This document shows positions 1 through 9,029 of a stretch of 9,029 nt of DNA, piece after piece; within the stretch, counting starts at the first letter, position 1, and each line of letters begins with the position of its first letter. Source of the DNA: a virus. Its lineage: Duplodnaviria; Heunggongvirae; Uroviricota; Caudoviricetes. The stretch lies in the IMG/VR virus record IMGVR_UViG_2802429240_000001. One strand, written 5' to 3'. The notes below the pieces were generated by a model. That model saw nothing but the letters and a program-made list of their open reading frames with translations, ran no database searches and was not told the DNA's origin. Both the position numbers and the translations under genes were made by a program.

Positions 1-226
1 GGGTAGCACTACCCTTACCGTTCAGTTCAAATCCCGTCCCCTGAATAGGGTATACCTGATACTGCCGCCCCTGCCAGGTGACCGGCTCACCTTTTTCGTT
101 CTGCTCATTACAGAAAAAATAACGTTCTCCACCGACCTCTGTCAGATCGATTTCCCAGAGCACCACGCTGGCCGACTGCTCCGCACGGGTGCATTCATTC
201 AGTGTTTCCTGCCGGATATCCTGCAT
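1..226 (-). CDS. L: Minor tail protein L (tail tip assembly), N-terminal 75 codons only; the gene continues past the left edge of the window
   Basis: Hand translation of the minus strand from ATG at 226..224 gives MQDIRQETLNECTRAEQSASVVLWEIDLTEVGGERYFFCNEQNEKGEPVTWQGRQYQ... with no stop to position 2. This matches the lambda gpL N-terminus as I recall it. The start overlaps the M stop by 1 nt (TGATG), as in lambda. Not in the ORF track because it has no in-window stop. Confidence 0.85.
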   Translation of the reverse strand, partial: MQDIRQETLNECTRAEQSASVVLWEIDLTEVGGERYFFCNEQNEKGEPVTWQGRQYQVYPIQGTGFELNGKGSAT

Positions 227-555
227 CAGTTCACCACCTGTTCAAACTCTGCGCTGAACTCAACACGCAGCATACTGACCCGCGACGACCATTTTGCGCA
301 GGTCACCTTTATCTGCCGCCACTCATAAGGCGGCGTCCACAGAAAGGCTTTCCAGCCCCCGTGCTCTTCCAGAAACGACTCCAGTACCGTGGCCTCCTCA
401 CGGGGGACAGAAAGCGTCACGCTGTACGTTTTCAGGTTGGCATTCAGCCCGGCAGGCGCTCGCTGGGAATAGCCATCACCAAAGCGCACCTTTCTTACAG
501 AAGGGGCCGAAGCCACATCCATACCGGGTTTCACTTTCCAGCGGAAGGTTTTCAT
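226..555 (-). CDS. M: Minor tail protein M (tail tip complex)
   Basis: 109-aa ORF MKTFRWKVKPGMDV...SAEFEQVVN, near-identical to lambda gpM as I recall it and the same length. ATGA start/stop overlap with the H stop. Confidence 0.95.
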   Translation of the reverse strand: MKTFRWKVKPGMDVASAPSVRKVRFGDGYSQRAPAGLNANLKTYSVTLSVPREEATVLESFLEEHGGWKAFLWTPPYEWRQIKVTCAKWSSRVSMLRVEFSAEFEQVVN

Positions 556-3113
556 CGTCCACCTCCGGAGAACAGACCACCATCACGCATCTGCCCGGTC
601 ACAACATCCATTGCCGCCTTACGGGCTACGTCATAAACCGCCTTCAGCGCCTGTGGCCCTATCTGACCGTTCGTGCCGTCGTTGTTAATCACCACATGGT
701 TATTCTGCTCAAACTTCCCGGACGCCTGCGACCGACTGTCCGCCATGCTGCCCGGTGTACCGACATAACCGCCGGTGGCATAGCCGCGCATCAGCCGGTA
801 AAGATTCCCCACGCCAATCCGGCTGGTTGCCTCCTTCGTAAAGACAAATTCACCACGGTGAACAATCCCCGCTGGCTCATATTTGCCGCCGGTTCCCGTA
901 AATCCTCCGGTTGCAAAATGGAGTTTCGCCGCAGCTGCCTGAATGGCTGCACCACCTGACGCTGATGAGCCGCCACCGGTAGCACCTCCAATGGCGCTGC
1001 CGATACTCCCGACAATCCCCACCATTGCCTGCTTAAGCAGAATTTCTGTCATCATGGACAGCACGGAACGGGTGAAGCTGCGCCAGTTCTGCTCACTGCC
1101 GGTCAGCATCGCCGCCATATTCTGTGCAATACCATCAAAGGTCTGCGTGGCTGCACTTTTTACCTGCGACATACTGTCCGTGGCGCTCTCTTCCCACTCA
1201 CTCCAGCCGGACTTCAGGCCTGCCATCCAGCTCCCGCGAAGCTGGTCTTCAGCCGCCCAGGTCTTTTTCTGCTCTGACATGACGTTATTCAGCGCCAGCG
1301 GATTATCGCCATACTGTTCCTTCAGGCGCTGTTCCGTGGCTTCCCGTTCTGCCTGCCGGTCAGTCAGCCCCCGGCTTTTCGCATCAATGGCGGCCCGTTT
1401 TGCCCGTTGCTGCTGTGCGAATTTATCCGCCTGCTGCGCCAGCGCGTTCAGGCGCTCCTGATACGTAACCTTGTCGCCAAGTGCAGCCAGCTGGCGTTTG
1501 TACTCCAGCGTCTCATCTTTATGCGCCAGCAGGGATTTCTCCTGTGCAGACAGCTGGCGACGTTGCGCCGCCTCCTCCAGTACCGCGAACTGACTCTCTG
1601 CCTTCCACAAATCCCGGCGCTGCTGGCTGATTTTCTCATTCGCTCCGGCATGCTTCTCCAGCGTCCGGAGTTCTGCCTGAAGCGTCAGCAGGGCAGCATG
1701 AGCACTGTCTTCCTGACGATCGCCCGCAGACACCTTCACGCCGGACTGTTTCGGCTTTTTCAGCGTCGCTTCATAATCCTTTTTCGCCGCCGCCATCAGC
1801 GTGTTGTAATCCGCCTGCAGGATTTTCCCGTCTTTCAGTGCCTTGTTCAGTTCTTCCTGACGGGCGGTATATTTCTCCAGCGGCGTCTGCAGCCGTTCGT
1901 AAGCCTTCTGCGCCTCTTCGGTATATTTCAGCCGTGACGCTTCGGTATCGCTCTGCTGCTGCGCATTTTTGTCCTGTTGACTCTGCTGTTCAGCCTTCTT
2001 TCTGGCGGCTTCAAGCGCAAGACGGGCCTTTTCACGATCATCCCAGTAACGCGCCCGCGCTTCATCGTTAACAAAATAATCATCCTTGCGCAGATTCCAG
2101 ATGTCGTCCGCTTTCTTAAACGCAGCCTCTGCCTTAATCAGCATCTCCTGAGCGGTATCAGGACGACCAATATCCAGCACCGCATCCCACATGGATTTGA
2201 ATGCCCGTGCTGTCCTGTCTGCCCAGGTCTCCAGCGTGCCCATGTTCTCTTTCAGGCGGCGGGTCTGGTCATCAAACCCTTTCGTTGCGGCCTCGTTCGC
2301 TGCCTGCAATGCCCCGGCTTCATCGCCGGAACGCTGCAACTGAGCAACATACGCAATCTGCTCCGCCGTCACGTTATGGAACTGACGCGCCATCGCTGTC
2401 AGCCCCGACGTCGGGTCTGTGGTCAGCTTCCCGAAGGCTTCAGCGACCTTGTCCACCTCCACGCCGGATGCAGAGGAGAAACGCGCCACACTCTGGCTGA
2501 TGGATGCAATCTGAGCCTCACCGCTTACTCCCGCCTTAACCAGTGCGCTGAGTGACTCGCTGGTCTGGTTAAACGTCAGCCCTGCCGCCTGCCCGGCTCT
2601 GGACAGGACCAGCATACGATCTGCCGTCAGACCCGACTGATTGCCGGAAAGGACCAGCGTTTTGTTGAAATCGGACAGGGTTGAGTTGCCCTGATACCAG
2701 GCATACGCCAGCGCACCGGTCGCCACCGCCAGCGAGGTGGTCCCGACCATCGGCAGGGTGATCGCACCGGCAAGCCCCCTGAACATGGGGATCATCCCGC
2801 CGAAGGAGTCCTTCACCTGACCACCCTGTTGCAGCAGGATCAGCCACGGACTTTGCCCGCCTGCAAGCTGCGTGGCCACGTCGGTGAACTGCGCAGGCAG
2901 CATACGCATGGCGGCTTTATACTGCCCGACGGAAATCCCCGCTTTCTGTGCAGCCAGCGCCTGTCGGCTCAGCGACTGTTCAACGACTGCCGCTGTTTTT
3001 TTCGCATCAGTTTCCGTACCGGAAAAATGACGCCTGACTCTGGCCATCTGCTCGTCAAATCTGGCCGCATCCAGACTTAAATCAACGACCAGATCGCCTA
3101 CCGGTTCAGCCAT
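552..3113 (-). CDS. H: Tail tape measure protein H
   Basis: 853-aa ORF, the same length as lambda gpH, with an N-terminus (MAEPVGDLVVDLSLDAARFDEQMARVRRHF...) and overall sequence I recognise as gpH. It has a long Ala/Gln/Glu/Lys/Arg-rich helical central region and a Gly-rich C-terminal part. GAGGAG RBS upstream of ATG at 3113; start overlaps the T-frame stop (3106..3108). Confidence 0.97.
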   Translation of the reverse strand: MAEPVGDLVVDLSLDAARFDEQMARVRRHFSGTETDAKKTAAVVEQSLSRQALAAQKAGISVGQYKAAMRMLPAQFTDVATQLAGGQSPWLILLQQGGQVKDSFGGMIPMFRGLAGAITLPMVGTTSLAVATGALAYAWYQGNSTLSDFNKTLVLSGNQSGLTADRMLVLSRAGQAAGLTFNQTSESLSALVKAGVSGEAQIASISQSVARFSSASGVEVDKVAEAFGKLTTDPTSGLTAMARQFHNVTAEQIAYVAQLQRSGDEAGALQAANEAATKGFDDQTRRLKENMGTLETWADRTARAFKSMWDAVLDIGRPDTAQEMLIKAEAAFKKADDIWNLRKDDYFVNDEARARYWDDREKARLALEAARKKAEQQSQQDKNAQQQSDTEASRLKYTEEAQKAYERLQTPLEKYTARQEELNKALKDGKILQADYNTLMAAAKKDYEATLKKPKQSGVKVSAGDRQEDSAHAALLTLQAELRTLEKHAGANEKISQQRRDLWKAESQFAVLEEAAQRRQLSAQEKSLLAHKDETLEYKRQLAALGDKVTYQERLNALAQQADKFAQQQRAKRAAIDAKSRGLTDRQAEREATEQRLKEQYGDNPLALNNVMSEQKKTWAAEDQLRGSWMAGLKSGWSEWEESATDSMSQVKSAATQTFDGIAQNMAAMLTGSEQNWRSFTRSVLSMMTEILLKQAMVGIVGSIGSAIGGATGGGSSASGGAAIQAAAAKLHFATGGFTGTGGKYEPAGIVHRGEFVFTKEATSRIGVGNLYRLMRGYATGGYVGTPGSMADSRSQASGKFEQNNHVVINNDGTNGQIGPQALKAVYDVARKAAMDVVTGQMRDGGLFSGGGR

Positions 3114-3944
3114 ACCGGACTCCTCCTGCGATCCCTTCTGATACTGTCATCAGCATTACGTCATCCTCCGTCATGTCCGCCACATCCGGGGAAGCGGGGA
3201 TAACTTCATTCCCGTCCGGGCCAAAACGAACGCCTCCGGCAAGCCCTGCCGCTTTCTGCATCAGCACATCATCTTCAGGCTCTTCGTCAGCCTCGCGCCG
3301 GTTCAGCAGACTGAAATCCAGCGGATGCATATCCGGATCGCTGAAAAACAGGCTGAGCACGGTGTACGTCAGCCCGGAAAAGTGCATATCCAGCAGAACA
3401 TCATGAAAATAATGGGTACTGTAAAAGCGGTGCCAGTCGGCATACTCCGTGGATGACATCCCGGCAAGCATGGCGCGCCAGTCGGGTCGCCCCATTTCAC
3501 GCGCCAGTTTCAGGGCAAAACTCAGCTCACCGTCGAACACTTTCCCGCAGAAACAGGCTCTGCAGGCCCGGCGTCATCTGCCTGTTCAGGGGCATTATTC
3601 ACAACAAACTCAGACATTCCGGACAGACGTAACACCACGTTTTCAGCCTGAGCAATTGCCTCCGTGGGCCAGGTGGTAAGCACTTCCTGCTCAATCTGCG
3701 TAATGGCTTCATTCATGGACGGCAGCTTTGTCTTCTGCGGATGGTTATGCCACAGAGACATCGCCACCAGAAACGCCCCGCCTCTGATAAGATCCTCTAC
3801 AGACACCTGCAGGTTGCCACTGGATTCAGCCTTTTTTTCCTGCTCTATCAACCAGGCAAGATGCTCAATACGCTGCAGGGCTGACAGTTCAGAAAGCGTG
3901 ACGGTCACACCGTTATGTTCAAATGATTCGGTTTTCAGGAACAT
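3106..3944 (-). CDS. T: Tail assembly chaperone G-T fusion, made by a programmed -1 ribosomal frameshift from G into the T frame
   Basis: The T-frame ORF (3106..3540, VFDGELSFALKLAREMGRPDW...) overlaps the 3' end of G in the -1 frame and has no independent RBS-preceded ATG. The slippery heptamer G GGA AAG sits in the G frame at 3546..3540 (plus-strand text ctttccc), and slipping back one base gives GTG TTC GAC GGT GAG = VFDGE. Same arrangement as lambda G/GT. Confidence 0.9.
3522..3944 (-). CDS. G: Tail assembly chaperone G
   Basis: 140-aa ORF MFLKTESFEHNGVTVTLSELSALQRIEHLAWL..., lambda gpG-like and the same length. It ends just after the slippery heptamer (...SAGKCSTVS*). Confidence 0.95.
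   Translation of the reverse strand: MFLKTESFEHNGVTVTLSELSALQRIEHLAWLIEQEKKAESSGNLQVSVEDLIRGGAFLVAMSLWHNHPQKTKLPSMNEAITQIEQEVLTTWPTEAIAQAENVVLRLSGMSEFVVNNAPEQADDAGPAEPVSAGKCSTVS
3540..3546 (-). promoter_or_regulatory. -1 programmed ribosomal frameshift slippery site GGGAAAG (G to G-T)
   Basis: Minus-strand heptamer G GGA AAG in the G reading frame (codons GCG GGA AAG verified by hand), six codons before the G stop. Identical to the lambda heptamer. Confidence 0.9.
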
Positions 3945-3959
3945 CGCTGACTCTCCGGA

Positions 3960-4700
3960 TTAACTGGCGGTGACGTTGATTTCTGCAACCGCAGCAAGTT
4001 CACCATTACCGGATACAACCGGAATGTTGACCTTACCTGCAGCGACGCCTTTCACAGTGATGGTCATACCACTGACCGACACGGTGGCTTTTGTTTTATC
4101 CGCTGACACCGCACGGAAGCTCTTGTCGGTTGCGCCCTCCGGCTGGAAGGCCACGGTCAGCGTGGTGCTCTGCCCTTTCACCACCGAGGTGCTGGCAGGC
4201 GTCACGGTCATGCCGGTTGCCGCTGTGACCGTGCTGCGATCTTCTGCCATCGACGGGCGTCCCACATTGGTGACCTTCACCGTGCGGGTGATCACTTCCT
4301 TCGCCGTCACCGCTTTACCGATACTGCTGACCCAGCCACGGAACACATCGACCGTGCCGTTCGGGAAGCGGATTTTATAGGCACGGGTATCACCTTCATT
4401 AAACCACGCCAGCAGCGCCTGCTGCCCCTGCTCTCCGGGCATCCACGCCAGCGTGAAGCTGGTATCTCCGGCTGATTTCTGCCCCTGCCCGGTCGCAGTC
4501 CAGTCCGCATCTTCATCATCGAGATAGCTGTCGTCATAGGACTCAGCGGTCAGTTCGCCGGGCGTCAGGTCTTTAACTTTTGCCAGACGCGACCAGTCCA
4601 CGTCTGAAAGCGGGTTCGCATAAGGGTCACCGTTCCCCTTATAAACCCACAGTGTGGTCCCGGCACCTTTCACCGGCATTGTAGGATTTGGTACAGGCAT
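3960..4700 (-). CDS. V: Major tail tube protein V
   Basis: Translation from ATG at 4700 gives [31 protein letters not shown]... (246 aa), with a C-terminal Ig-like region. GAGGA RBS about 8 nt upstream. The track ORF starts 10 codons earlier at 4730, but that extension lies inside U and is not used in lambda. Confidence 0.95.
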
Positions 4701-4707
4701 AGCGTCC

Positions 4708-5103
4708 TCACATTTCATAGGTAATGACATAAGTCAGATCGGCTGAACTCCACAGGCCCGCATCATCGTCGCGCCGGTAGTCATAGCCGCTGGCCACCAT
4801 ACTGGTGATCAAATCTGACAGTGCCGGGATATCGCTCATCACCGGATAAATCCGGGACTCCATCCACGCATCCAGCTCTGAATCCGGCACCTGAGCAGGC
4901 AGGAAAACTTCGATATGCAGCTCCGCCTGCCAGGTATCGCTGTCCAGCTCTTCGCCCGTGTATTCAGCGCCGGTGAGATAAACGGCAACTGCCGGAAAAT
5001 CCGCCTCATCAAAAACAGCGGGGCGACCATCAAAAAACGTCGCCCCGGTGTCATGCTTCTCCAGTGCATCCAGTACGGCTGCACGGAGTTCAGTATGTTT
5101 CAT
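4708..5103 (-). CDS. U: Tail tube terminator protein U
   Basis: 131-aa [56 protein letters not shown]..., lambda gpU-like and the same length. ATGA overlap with the Z stop. Confidence 0.95.
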
Positions 5104-5678
5104 CGCTTTATTACCATCCTCAGTTGATGCTGCAGCGCATAGCCCAGCTCTTTCGGAAGACGTTCACGCCGTATCCGCTCAATATTTTGTTTAAACGCCG
5201 TGGTCAGCGGCACCGCCATCGGGATTTTCACCACATCAATGGGGTAACGGTTTTTCCCGGCCACACGCTGCATGACATGCCACCGGCCATTTTTCAGTTG
5301 CTGAATAAACGCGCCGGGAATACGACGGTTACCCACCACAAGCACGCTGCCGCCACCTTTCAGGGATGAACGCTGCCCCTTTTTACGACGCCTGCGGCGC
5401 GAAAGGACAACCCGCGCGTTACCCAGCCTGATTACGGGCAAATCCCCCCGGTTAACCTTGATTCTGGCCTGCGGATTTTTGACCGTGGCCCTTTTCAGCC
5501 TGGCCCTTTCCTTTACCAGTTTCCGGCGTACCTTTGTCTCACGGGCAACCTGTGACGCCGACTGCGATATCGCGGATGAAGCAACGCGGTTAATGGCCAT
5601 TGCGGCGGCACCAGGCACCGCCGTTCTGCTGATACGGCTGAGGTTTTCAATGGCCTGCTCAAGACCTTTTATGGCCAT
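5100..5678 (-). CDS. Z: Tail completion protein Z
   Basis: 192-aa ORF MAIKGLEQAIENLSRISRTAVPGAAAMAINRV..., lambda gpZ-like and the same length. Confidence 0.95.
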   Translation of the reverse strand: MAIKGLEQAIENLSRISRTAVPGAAAMAINRVASSAISQSASQVARETKVRRKLVKERARLKRATVKNPQARIKVNRGDLPVIRLGNARVVLSRRRRRKKGQRSSLKGGGSVLVVGNRRIPGAFIQQLKNGRWHVMQRVAGKNRYPIDVVKIPMAVPLTTAFKQNIERIRRERLPKELGYALQHQLRMVIKR

Positions 5679-5689
5679 ACATCCCCCCT

Positions 5690-6043
5690 TCAGCGGCGAC
5701 GGTTAACGGCAGGCGGTACGCCCCGCCCAAGCCAGAGATGACAGCTTCCACCATCATCCGGCGAAACCCGGTCTATCCAGAAGTTTTCCTCACCGATGGT
5801 CAGCGTGTCTCCACGCCGCAGCTGCCGCACATCATCAGTCCGGACAAACAGGGACGGGCTGGAGCCTTCAACGCGCACGCCCTGTCCGGCATAGCTGATA
5901 TTTTCAGGGTCATCAAAAACACCACGTATTACTGCGCCGGACTGCTCACCGGATGTCATGGTGGCTGACGTTCCCATGTACCCGCGTATCGTTTCATCGG
6001 CGCGAACAATGGCAGCATCGAACAGGTTATCGAAATCAGCCAC
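5690..6043 (-). CDS. FII: Head-tail joining (head completion) protein FII
   Basis: 117-aa ORF MADFDNLFDAAIVRADETIRGYMGTSATMTSGEQ..., lambda gpFII-like and the same length. Confidence 0.95.
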   Translation of the reverse strand: MADFDNLFDAAIVRADETIRGYMGTSATMTSGEQSGAVIRGVFDDPENISYAGQGVRVEGSSPSLFVRTDDVRQLRRGDTLTIGEENFWIDRVSPDDGGSCHLWLGRGVPPAVNRRR

Positions 6044-6054
6044 AACGCCTCCCG

Positions 6055-6450
6055 TTATTGCATTCTGGCCAGGCCGCGCTCTGTCATTTCGGCTGCCACA
6101 CCGGCAGAGACACGAAACGCCGTTCCCGGCAGCACAAATGCCACAGGTTCATCCCGCGTGGCGTGAAGTGCATCAGTATGCAGCGTCACCAGTGCCACGA
6201 CCGTGACCAGAGCAGCCGTATCAGTCACGGTATCCGGCTGCGCTGATACCACCTCATTTTCATGTCCGGTCAGCGCATTTTCCGGGTTGACAGATGTGTC
6301 CTGACCGGCAGCGTCATCCGTGTCATCAAGCTCCTCTTCCAGCTCTGCCACACGGAGTGCCAGTTCTTCTTTCGTCCCCGTCAGGCTGACATCACGGTTC
6401 AGTTGCTCACCCAGCGAGCGGAGACGGGCAATCAGCTCATCTTTCGTCAT
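6055..6450 (-). CDS. FI: DNA-packaging / head assembly accessory protein FI
   Basis: Translation from ATG at 6450 gives MTKDELIARLRSLGEQLNRDVSLTGTKEELALRVAELEEELDD...RGLARMQ (131 aa), with GGAGGAG RBS immediately upstream. The 13-codon N-terminal extension in the track ORF (to 6489) is rejected. Confidence 0.92.
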   Translation of the reverse strand: MTKDELIARLRSLGEQLNRDVSLTGTKEELALRVAELEEELDDTDDAAGQDTSVNPENALTGHENEVVSAQPDTVTDTAALVTVVALVTLHTDALHATRDEPVAFVLPGTAFRVSAGVAAEMTERGLARMQ

Positions 6451-6491
6451 GGACTCCTCCACAGAGAAACAATGGCCCCGAAGGGCCATGA

Positions 6492-7517
6492 TTACGCCAG
6501 TTGTACGGACACGAACTCATCAGGGTCAGCCAGCAGCATCAGCGGTGCTGACTGAATCATGGTGAACTCACGCGCCGGATCGCCGGTGGTCACCCAGTTT
6601 TTCGGGTAGCGGGCAGAGGCGTTAATGCCTTCGCGCTGTGCGTCCGCATCCTGAATGCAGCCATAGGTGCGCAGACCGCGTGCCTGAGTGTTCCCCAGCA
6701 CCATCGTGTTGTCCGGCAGGAAGTTCTTTTTGACGCCGTTTTCCACGTACTGTCCGGAATACACGACGATGGCCACATCGCCATACATTCCCTTATAGGA
6801 CACCGCTTTGCCCAGGTCTTTTACCGCTGTCTCCAGCTCGGAATGAGAGCCGCGACGGGTATCCAGCTTCTCCCTGACGGCTTTGAAGGAACGGAACAGC
6901 GCCCAGCCTTTCGGATCAAACACGATGATATTCACCACACCGCTGGCGTTCAGCGCGTAGGCTTCGATATCGTCTGTCGGGTCATACGTGGACTTGTCAC
7001 GCTTGCTCCACTCCGTGCCGCCGGACTGCGTGATGTTATTCGCCTCACTGCGGCCCATATCCACCTCAACCGGATCGAAGGCTTCACCGGTCATGGTGTA
7101 TTTGCCCTTAAGCACGGCAGAAACTGCCTGCATCTCTTCGACCTGAGCAATGGCCAGCTCTTCGTCACGCATGTTCTGCATGATGATGCGACGGCGGCGG
7201 TAAGTCGGGTCCGCCAGATTCTGCGGATCTTCATCCGGCAGGCGACGCAGGGTCATCTGCGGATTCACTTCATGCTTCGGCTTGACATATCCCGGCGTAA
7301 ATTCAGAGGTGGAGCCGCCACGGGAACGGATAACCTCACCGGAAACAATCGGCGAAACGTACAGCGCCATGTTTACCAGTCCCGGAATTTGTGAGAGATA
7401 GACTTTCTCCGTAGTGAAGGGATAGCTCTCACGGAAAAAGAGACGCAGAAACAGCGGATCAAACTTAAATTTCTGCTCATTTGCCGCCAGCAGCTGGGCG
7501 GTTGTGTACATCGACAT
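6492..7517 (-). CDS. E: Major capsid protein E (HK97-fold)
   Basis: Translation from ATG at 7517 gives MSMYTTAQLLAANEQKFKFDPLFLRLFFRESYPFTTEKVYLSQIPGLVNMALYVSPIVSGEV... (341 aa), near-identical to lambda gpE as I recall it. The track ORF starts 9 codons upstream inside the D-E intergenic hairpin. Confidence 0.97.
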   Translation of the reverse strand: MSMYTTAQLLAANEQKFKFDPLFLRLFFRESYPFTTEKVYLSQIPGLVNMALYVSPIVSGEVIRSRGGSTSEFTPGYVKPKHEVNPQMTLRRLPDEDPQNLADPTYRRRRIIMQNMRDEELAIAQVEEMQAVSAVLKGKYTMTGEAFDPVEVDMGRSEANNITQSGGTEWSKRDKSTYDPTDDIEAYALNASGVVNIIVFDPKGWALFRSFKAVREKLDTRRGSHSELETAVKDLGKAVSYKGMYGDVAIVVYSGQYVENGVKKNFLPDNTMVLGNTQARGLRTYGCIQDADAQREGINASARYPKNWVTTGDPAREFTMIQSAPLMLLADPDEFVSVQLA

Positions 7518-7572
7518 AAAAAAATCCCGTAAAAAAAGCCGCACAGGCGGCCTTTAGTGATGAAGGGTCAGG
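7518..7572 (-). terminator. D-E intergenic stem-loop followed by a U-tract (terminator-like hairpin inside the late operon)
   Basis: Minus-strand RNA reads ...AAAG GCCGC CUGU GCGGC UUUUUUUACGGGAUUUUUUU AUG(E): a 5-bp GC stem (plus 7538..7551) with a 4-nt loop, extendable by G-U and A-U pairs, followed by a U7 run. The 55-nt gap it occupies is the same size as the lambda D-E gap. Confidence 0.5.
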
Positions 7573-7905
7573 TTAAACGATGCTGATTGCCGTTCCGGCA
7601 AACGCGGTCCGTTTTTTCGTCTCGTCGCTGGCAGCCTCCGGCCAGAGCACATCCTCATAACGGAACGTGCCGGACTTGTAGAACGTCAGTGTGGTGCTGG
7701 TCTGGTCAGCAGCAACCGCCAGAATGCCAACGGCAGCACCGTCGGTGGTGCCATCCCAAGCAACCAGCTTACGGGTGGAGGTGTCCAGCATCAGCGGGGT
7801 CATTGCAGGCGCTTTCGCACTCAATCCGCCGGGCGCGGTTGCGGTATGAGCCGGGTCACTGTTGCCCAGCGGCTGGTAATGGGTAAAGGTTTCTTTGCTC
7901 GTCAT
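7573..7905 (-). CDS. D: Head decoration protein D
   Basis: Translation from ATG at 7905 gives [43 protein letters not shown]...AISIV (110 aa), lambda gpD-like. 9-nt gap to the C stop, as in lambda. Confidence 0.95.
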
Positions 7906-7914
7906 AAACATCCC

Positions 7915-8277
7915 TTACACTGGTGTGTTCAGCAAATCGTTAACGGCATCAGATGCCGGGTTACCTGCCGCCAGCGGTGTCGGTGCCCCCTGCATCAGAC
8001 GATCCAGCGCAGTGTCACTGCGCGCCTGTGCACTCTGTGGTGCTGCGGCCAGAATGCGGCGGGCCGTTTCCACGGTCATACCGGGGGTTTCTGCCAGCAC
8101 GCGGGCCTGTTCTTCGCGTCCGTGAGCCTCCTCACAATTGAGGATCCCCATAATGCGGCTGTTTTCTGCCGCAACCGCTGCGGTGATCTGTGCGTTCACG
8201 TCCGGCTGCGCCGCGCTGGCGTTCTCGCCCTCTGTCGCTGACACCACGTCAGTAACGTCAGCCTGCAAAGCAGTGGC
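7915..8277 (-). pseudogene. C: 3' remnant of capsid assembly protease / scaffold gene C (with nested Nu3), truncated upstream by the IS66-family insertion
   Basis: An open frame ending ...GNPASDAVNDLLNTPV* sits exactly where the lambda C/Nu3 C-terminus would be, 9 nt upstream of D. Only about 120 codons remain before the frame runs into the IS terminus at about 8278; lambda C is about 439 aa (from memory). The track ORF 7915..8268 begins at a TTG, not a credible native start. Confidence 0.8.
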
Positions 8278-9029
8278 GTAAGCGGCTCGCCAGAACCGTA
8301 TTGATATTTACTGAGAGCTCAGATCAACTTTCCAGGGCAACAGATCGCGTACCCGGTTTGCCGGCCAGTCCTGGATATGCTCAATGACGTAACGCAGCCA
8401 TTTTTCTGGATCCACATTGTTCAGACGGCATGTGCCGATCAGCGAGTACAACACCGCCGCATGTTCGCCACCGCTGTCGGAACCCGCGAACAGCCAGTTT
8501 TTCCGGCCTACGGCCACTCCCCGTAAGGCGTTCTCTGCGATGTTGTTGTCGATTTCCACCCAGCCATTACTGCAGTACACGTTCAGGCCATCCCACTGTT
8601 TCAGCAGGTATGCGAACGCTTTTGCCGTATCTGAGTGACGCGACAGTGTTTTCATCTGTTGCTGTATCCAGTCATACAGTGACTGCATCAGTGGCGCGGC
8701 TCTGGCTTTTCTTGCCACCAGACGCTGTTCTGCTGAACAGCCCCGGACCTCTGCCTCGATGGCATACAGTTCACCGATACGCTGCAGGGCTTCCGTGGTG
8801 ATGTCGGTTGGCACTCTTGCATGCACATCGTGGATTTTTCTCCGGGCATGAGCCATACACGCGGCTTCCGTTATTCTGCCGGATTCGTATAACGCCCGGT
8901 AGCCACCGTAAGCATCGGCCTGAAGCACACCGCTGTAACCGGCCAGGTGATTTTGTGGATGGATACCTTTCCGGTCCGGACTGTACGCGAACCAGACCGC
9001 CGGGGGCATCTGTGAACCGGCGTTACGGT
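8278..9029 (-). mobile_element. IS66-family insertion sequence, partial: right end plus the 3' part of the transposase gene; the rest lies beyond the window
   Basis: The phage C frame is interrupted at about 8277/8278, where the plus strand reads GTAAGCGGCTCGCCAGAACCG; GTAAGCG is the terminus I associate with IS66-family inverted repeats. About 30 bp inward is the stop of an ORF carrying IS66 TnpC motifs. The exact boundary is uncertain by a few bp. Confidence 0.8.
8308..9029 (-). CDS. tnpC: IS66-family transposase (ORF3/TnpC-type), C-terminal ~240 aa; the 5' end lies beyond the window
   Basis: ORF ...[63 protein letters not shown]...; the DNNxAEN and GRKNWLF motifs are characteristic of IS66-family transposase C-termini. 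The frame stays open upstream of the first in-window Met (9009) to the window edge. Stop TAA at 8308..8310. Confidence 0.85.

Follow-up and report, generated by a model that had tools for sequence, protein, structure and literature searches.

An ISCro1-like IS66-family insertion in gene C of a lambda-like Escherichia coli prophage and its probable effect on the late operon

What becomes of the head and tail genes of a lambda-like prophage when an insertion sequence (IS) lies in front of them? The DNA considered here, called the window below, is the whole of a 9029-bp draft contig (PTSL01000045.1, assembly GCA_002965885.1), which ends 752 nt into an IS. The long reading frames of the whole window are all on the minus strand, and the gene calls run, in order, through an IS66 transposase fragment, a 110-aa ORF, HDPD, Phage_cap_E, FI, FII, Z, U, V, G, T, H, M and the start of L. 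An earlier interpretation, referred to here as the sequence-only reading, had placed the IS upstream of D through L and in the orientation of the head and tail operon, and the gene calls agree with this. It then asked whether a terminator in the IS could silence these genes, with antitermination or an outward promoter at the IS end as possible escape routes. The answer that we consider probable is that an ISCro1-like element of the IS66 family entered gene C of a lambda-like prophage of E. coli by transposition at codon 320 (Nu3 codon 82), in the orientation of the late operon, with truncation of C/Nu3, read-through of the element under Q and no outward promoter.

The element occupies positions 8278-9029 of the minus strand and is the right-hand 752 bp of an ISCro1-like member of the IS66 family, as identified by DNA identity and Pfam matches; it runs off the end of the contig. 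It contains the 3' part of the transposase gene tnpC (8308-9027, minus strand), consisting of 239 codons followed by a TAA stop at 8310-8308. The translation of 8311-9027 on the minus strand is free of stop codons and matches the families DDE_Tnp_IS66 (PF03050, E = 5.8e-65) and IS66_C (PF13817, E = 9.2e-17). The copies of the ISCro1 family found in complete E. coli genomes have at most 98.7% identity to the IS DNA of the window, and the nearest E. coli copies carry the RefSeq label of an IS66-like ISCro1-family transposase. Related full copies elsewhere are about 2.7 kb long and contain tnpA, tnpB and tnpC as three tightly packed, co-oriented genes. A search of the whole window against Rfam produced no match.

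The right terminus of the element (8278-8307, minus strand) is a terminal inverted repeat ending in ...GAGCCGCTTAC. Read on the plus strand, this end is GTAAGCG (8278-8284), which conforms to the terminal-repeat pattern 5'-GTAA(G/C)CG. The IS ends at 8278, which is 30 nt past the tnpC stop codon. This terminus was aligned with that of an independent ISCro1 insertion in strain HCP5S3_I2, where the left and right repeats of a full copy were also compared; its ends are GTAACCGGCTC... and GTAAGCGACTC... From position 8277 downward the window is collinear with uninterrupted lambda-like prophages, and the first 778 nt are 100% identical in many genomes. The terminus had been placed near 8290-8300 before; the GTAAGCG repeat and the prophage homology starting at 8277 move the boundary to 8278/8277.

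The window shows one of the two IS junctions, and the second copy of any target duplication lies beyond the end of the contig. The sequence of the empty site is preserved in E. coli strain 20, in which the segments ...CTGTTTCA, GCCACTGC (14001-14008 of the strain 20 locus) and TTTGCAGG... follow each other directly. It follows that GCCACTGC is the expected 8-bp target-site duplication, and its phage-side copy is located at 8270-8277 of the window (minus-strand reading). The full ISCro1 copy of strain HCP5S3_I2, with its tnpA-tnpB-tnpC genes, is inserted 18 bp upstream of the present site and is bordered by a clean 8-bp duplication, CAATCAAC.

The exact junction was found in only two draft contigs, which are 100% identical to each other, and in 0 complete E. 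coli genomes. The second contig (JABWNV020000064.1) is 100% identical over 7841 nt and begins 96 nt inside the same IS; assembly GCA_013368865.2 represents an identical lineage. An exact search for the junction 28-mer in a one-genome-per-species collection gave 0 matches, a result that the composition of that collection makes uninformative. The rarity of the exact junction, together with the intact state of all the downstream reading frames, suggests that the insertion is recent.

Gene D, which encodes the head decoration protein, is intact at 7573-7905 (Pfam HDPD, E = 4e-22) and has its own ribosome-binding site, TAAGGGATGTTTATG. Gene E for the major capsid protein is likewise intact at 6492-7517 (Pfam Phage_cap_E, E = 4e-71). 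According to the list of ORFs and their Pfam families, the remaining section (1-6450) contains FI, FII, Z, U, V, G, T, H (the tape-measure gene), M and the 5' part of L, with ORFs of the lengths known from lambda.

The damage is found on the other side of gene D. The section 7915-8277 (minus strand) aligns with lambda gpC at 97% identity and represents residues 320-439 of gpC (residues 82-201 of Nu3) together with the stop codon. In the lambda genome (NC_001416), C extends from 4418 to 5737 and nu3 is nested in frame at 5132-5737, so that the Nu3 start corresponds to codon 239 of C. The insertion point is therefore at codon 320 of C and codon 82 of Nu3. The final 120 residues are missing from both proteins, and the start codon of each is beyond the IS; the window contains no intact frame that would include the C start and the internal Nu3 start at codon 239. 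Because the IS parts the last 120 codons from the start codons, neither full-length gpC nor full-length gpNu3 can be made by this prophage. In lambda head assembly, Nu3 is the scaffold protein and gpC is the head protease. Head assembly should be defective for the prophage on its own. It is important to note that the dominant consequence of the insertion is this knock-out of C/Nu3 rather than polarity, a point that was absent from the sequence-only reading.

A truncated Nu3-like C-terminal product had been proposed for the remnant. This proposal is unsupported: the start codon and ribosome-binding site of Nu3 are on the other side of the IS, and a Shine-Dalgarno sequence is absent in front of every in-frame ATG, GTG or TTG codon of the remnant. 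A Pfam scan of the remnant detected no domain. The gene tnpC and the remnant happen to share a reading frame, and a TnpC-'C fusion protein was considered for this reason; it is ruled out by the intervening TAA, and a match of frames is expected by chance in one case of three.

The N-terminal part of C deserves separate attention. Precomputed Pfam matches to the S49 peptidase and PF25145 domains are present already in N-terminal fragments of 305 aa, and both domains consequently belong to the N-terminal part of C. In the case of a simple insertion, the upstream reading frame would run ...GCC ACT GC/G TAA (the slash marks the junction) and would yield a product of gpC residues 1-322, stopped by the TAA of the left repeat. 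Such a product would retain the S49 peptidase domain. With gpC 1-322 as the query, a search for homologues gave no cluster representative of 322 aa. The exact look-up of the predicted product, built from the strain 20 sequence, found no copy in a collection of 15 billion proteins, a search that is defeated by a difference of one residue. The same product built from the lambda sequence had a single exact match, on a 991-bp contig labelled Listeria, and this was set aside as an unrelated contig-end fragment.

All of this leaves the far side of the IS to be considered. Multi-copy IS elements are routine break points of short-read assemblies. Since the contig stops inside the IS, the presence of Q, the late promoter and C', and the continuity of the prophage beyond the IS, are an assumption for the source strain. 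Going by complete prophages that are related, one would expect Q, the lysis genes, terminase, W, portal and C to follow one another on the upstream side, and where a complete genome carries a comparable insertion, the IS separates Q/terminase/portal/C' from 'C-D-E.

The IS might instead mark an IS-mediated inversion or deletion, by which 'C-D-...-L would be physically detached from the late promoter. The stop of the contig inside the IS fits such an event, as does the absence of the predicted gpC 1-322 of the present allele from the protein collection. In strain CFSAN018748 an inverted fragment of gene C lies immediately upstream of 'C-D-E with an ISCro1 copy on either side, which shows that such an IS may have something other than the remaining operon on its far side. 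However, a short-read break at an IS is uninformative either way, and the protein look-up is a weak negative for the reason given above. Where complete genomes offer a comparable case, the insertion is in most instances a simple one that leaves the two halves of C where they were. We therefore consider a rearrangement unlikely, though of the alternatives discussed here it deserves the most attention, and a simple insertion is the preferred reading in what follows. The break inside the IS, which the sequence-only reading had not taken into account, is nevertheless a warning against inferring operon continuity from a draft assembly.

Simple insertions of ISCro1 were identified in HCP5S3_I2, 94_0962 and E2865, the last in the opposite orientation, and the 8-bp duplication was verified in HCP5S3_I2. 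The element is in gene C in both HCP5S3_I2 and 94_0962, in the latter 132 nt before the C stop codon, while in ETEC H10407, NCTC86 and many other strains it interrupts gene E at about codon 17. HCP5S3_I2, 94_0962, E2865 and ETEC H10407 resemble the present case in the type of IS, in the block of head genes affected and in their near-identical prophages. In these related cases the disrupted gene is annotated as two pseudogene halves. They differ in the points of insertion; the present allele alone is at C codon 320.

An apparent bias of the insertions in C toward the orientation of the operon was also considered and rejected. The search joins collinear pieces only, and when the IS was reversed in an artificial query, an ISCro1 of the opposite orientation was found in C, about 500 bp upstream of the present site, in 112 complete genomes, O26/O103-type strains among them. 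There are at least six distinct sites of ISCro1-type insertion in the C-E block, in both orientations, and there is no orientation rule for ISCro1 in this block. It is conceivable, though in our opinion improbable, that the C-E block is a preferred or selected target of ISCro1 and that transcription from the transposase promoter of co-oriented copies leaks into 'C-D, by which D would be expressed in lysogens at a low level and without Q. The support for the target preference and for the leak is anecdotal.

The next question is whether the end of the IS could itself drive the downstream genes. The proposed outward promoter consists of the hexamers TTGATC (minus strand, 8327-8322) and TATCAA (8306-8301) with a spacer of 15 nt, and these positions were found to be exact. 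With the IS boundary at 8278/8277, the whole candidate (8301-8327, minus strand) is inside the IS. The same sequence is present in the aligned ISCro1 copy of HCP5S3_I2, and it is therefore a property of the IS and not of the present junction. The candidate has 8 of 12 matches to the consensus, a sub-optimal spacer and a -10 hexamer that ends in A where a T is conserved. It thus lacks the near-consensus hexamers and the 16-18 nt spacer of a sigma70 promoter and does not rise above chance. When sites of equal quality were counted on the minus strand of the window (at least 4/6 matches per hexamer, spacer 15-19), 30 were found, compared with 29.8±5.7 in shuffled sequences.

The consensus promoter scan of 7400-9029 gave 0 sites, with 0.6±0.8 expected, and the scan of a full IS copy with its flanks also gave 0 sites. 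These scans are insensitive; they also miss the transposase promoter of the IS itself, which must exist, and a weak promoter may escape them as well. Outward or hybrid promoters have been described for other IS families (PMC3281130; PMC8764528). The promoter-trap study in Paracoccus reports terminal outward promoters in the IS5, IS3 and IS21 families, and IS66 is not among the families named in the available part of that paper (PMC3281130). In the literature found, such promoters concern IS1 and members of IS3/IS407, IS5/IS903 and IS21; none was found for ISCro1 or for the IS66 family.

The hexamers might start transcripts near 8294 and so express 'C, D, E and the genes beyond without Q. The hexamers are indeed present as described and the other IS families provide a precedent. 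However, the candidate is below the threshold of the scan, equally good sites occur at the rate of shuffled sequences, and the precedent comes from families other than IS66. In addition, a transcript not modified by Q would run into the D-E hairpin and its U7 after about 750 nt. Such a role for the hexamers is very improbable, and a meaningful outward promoter appears to be absent from the IS end. In the lysogen, Q-independent transcription into 'C-D would more plausibly come from read-through of the transposase promoter of the IS, and it should largely end at the native D-E hairpin and U7.

The D-E hairpin is an important control for the search for terminators. It is located in the intergenic space at 7531-7555 (minus strand), where folding gives a stem-loop GCCGCCTGTGCGGC of about -12 kcal/mol followed by U7, and it is terminator-like. 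The sequence is identical in lambda (NC_001416). Wild-type lambda late transcription must for this reason already pass a better terminator than any present in the IS. The consensus terminator scan reported no sense-strand site in the IS part of the window or in a full IS copy. This tool also missed the D-E hairpin, probably because its greedy stem extension consumes part of the U-run, and a custom scan was written on account of that failure. At a permissive setting the custom scan is noisy, with 63 sense-strand candidates, and only a G+C-rich stem directly adjoining a long U-run was counted. With this rule the D-E control was recovered as the only canonical sense-strand site, its stem directly adjoined by seven U, and the IS, in the window part and in the full copies, contained no G+C-rich stem with a U-run. 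The IS thus has no canonical intrinsic terminator in the direction of the operon. Around the IS/C junction, the folding of the RNA is no better than that of shuffled sequences (z = -0.63), and a U-run is absent. The worry that a terminator in the IS could silence the downstream genes was a legitimate one; its answer, in principle, comes from Q and from a published IS66-family case, as set out below.

Termination dependent on Rho has to be considered as well. Between the tnpC stop and the D start there are 399 nt that are probably untranslated. The C/G ratio of this section varies from 0.7 to 1.26 with no strongly C-rich, G-poor tract; the highest value, 1.26, occurs at about 8130-8010 and is around the 95th percentile for the minus strand. 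The composition of this stretch is not clearly rut-like, and Rho could in principle load there.

IS insertions are classically polar. A polar block would mean that transcription terminates in the IS or just after it, either because Rho acts on RNA that is not translated or because a cryptic terminator is present, and that D through L are silent even after induction. The classical behavior of such insertions, the long section without a credible translation start and the C/G maximum within it are in favor of this possibility. However, the full IS copies are free of a canonical intrinsic terminator in the sense direction, and the lambda late operon already contains the stronger terminator-like site between D and E. 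The lambda Q protein is described as a proven polarity suppressor that renders RNA polymerase resistant to pausing and termination, at terminators of both types (PMC12360218, in the part of the text available, which cites Forbes & Herskowitz 1982 for polarity suppression by Q).

A natural case points in the same direction. In the O157 strain 9000, ISEc8, also of the IS66 family, is inserted in stx2A, the first late gene of the Stx2a phage. According to the available text of that study (PMC6776261), comparison with the precisely repaired strain 9000R showed that the Stx2a toxin is lost with ISEc8, while stx2B, which is downstream of the IS, is induced in both strains, and the rapid lysis dependent on Phage-stx2a has the same start and end times in both. 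The deposited genome of Stx2 phage 1717 has a further ISEc8, co-oriented in the pR operon, with the replication genes on one side and the nin/Q region on the other. ISEc8 and the present IS have only about 71% DNA identity. In our estimation a polar block is improbable.

The preferred reading is read-through under antitermination, which is the default expectation by analogy with polarity suppression by Q and with the ISEc8 cases, a related IS in other phages. This was already one of the two escape routes suggested by the sequence-only reading, and of the two it is the one with good support (PMC12360218; PMC6776261). Since the IS has no canonical sense terminator and carries three closely spaced genes in the direction of the operon, Q-modified RNA polymerase starting from the late promoter would be expected to read through the 2.7-kb element. 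In a simple insertion, D through L would then still be transcribed after induction.

These results have a practical meaning for annotation: the prophage should be recorded as defective (C/Nu3 null) and not as intact. It is a known kind of prophage-decay event and opens no new question. Whether an IS within a Q-dependent late operon silences the genes behind it has in principle been answered already, genetically by polarity suppression through Q and in nature by the published stx2A::ISEc8 case.

It is useful to compare the present locus with the known systems more closely. The IS elements with outward promoters, IS1 and the members of IS3/IS407, IS5/IS903 and IS21, embody the same concept of an IS end driving the neighboring genes, but a comparable element is not detectable at the present IS end. 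Classical polar insertions and the suppression of their polarity by Q fit the scenario of the sequence-only reading, in which an IS has entered an operon read by antiterminated polymerase; the present one differs in being a natural insertion of an IS66-family element. The likeness to stx2A::ISEc8 is closer. In both, an IS66-family element is found in a Q-dependent lambdoid late operon, and there the target gene is lost and the downstream late functions are kept. The differences are that ISEc8 is another member of the IS66 family, in another phage with another type of Q and another late promoter, and that its target is just after the late promoter, while the present target is among the head genes. 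The orientation of ISEc8 in stx2A is not stated in the available text of PMC6776261.

For the fate of the prophage itself, the closest comparison is with the lambdoid prophages of O157 Sakai. Those with IS-disrupted or otherwise defective head and packaging genes are still packaged, which the authors credit to complementation by the co-resident lambdoid prophages (PMC2669165). Sakai Sp4, with an IS in nu1, is similar to the present prophage in that a lambda-like prophage has an IS in a gene for packaging or morphogenesis, although the gene and the IS are different. By analogy, other lambdoid prophages of the same cell could compensate in trans for the head defect described here.

The window (1-9029) is a complete draft contig, and each of its ends falls within a gene or element. 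At one end the sequence breaks off 752 nt into a multi-copy element, the ISCro1-like IS of the IS66 family on the minus strand (8278-9029), while the opposite end is located inside the tail gene L. A second assembly contains a contig of 7841 nt which is 100% identical to the window and begins 96 nt into the IS. Among the ISCro1 copies of 5,426 complete E. coli genomes, none is more than 98.7% identical to the IS portion. This copy could be a minor variant, or several copies could have been collapsed into a consensus at the contig end.

The stop codon of the transposase gene tnpC (8308-8310, minus strand) is in frame with the remnant of head gene C (7915-8277, minus strand). In the second draft contig carrying the same junction, JABWNV020000064.1, an ORF of 130 amino acids starting inside the IS terminus (positions 67-459) was called by one pipeline. 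Nothing indicates that this agreement of frames goes beyond a coincidence with odds of 1 in 3.

Downstream of this junction, the intergenic region between D and E contains a canonical terminator-like structure on the minus strand, the hairpin GCCGCCTGTGCGGC followed by a U7 run (7531-7555), and the sequence of lambda is identical here. This hairpin was not detected by the consensus scan for terminators, probably due to a greedy extension of the stem through G-U pairs, which consumes part of the U-run. The noisy permissive scan also gave two strong candidate hairpins on the minus strand, each followed by a U-rich stretch and each within tail-gene coding sequence: one of -18.5 kcal/mol near 5017 in U, and one of -15.4 kcal/mol near 3348 in T.

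ISCro1 is also found in the head genes of other E. coli prophages. In ETEC H10407 (9705-12531 of the compared locus), gene E, which encodes the major capsid, is broken at about codon 17 by a co-oriented ISCro1, and the interrupted gene is annotated as a shortened "major capsid protein" of 320 amino acids. The same insertion occurs in NCTC86 and about 20 others, the prophage being widespread and near-identical. In E. coli E2865 (1093-5119), gene C carries an anti-oriented ISCro1, whose position is some 500 bp upstream from the insertion site in the window. The anti-oriented insertion in C is present in 112 complete genomes and is common to many STEC of the O26/O103 type; it is probably one ancestral event. 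At the locus of E. coli CFSAN018748 (1-4955), an internal piece of gene C is inverted and lies between two oppositely oriented ISCro1 copies, an arrangement that looks like an IS-mediated inversion within a lambda-like prophage. Finally, the last 105 nt of the IS (8278-8382) have a counterpart in some records of Stx-converting phages, for example phage 2851. In FM180578.1 (approximately 55375-55479) and AP012539.1 only this fragment is present, with 98% identity, and it looks like a solo remnant of the IS end.
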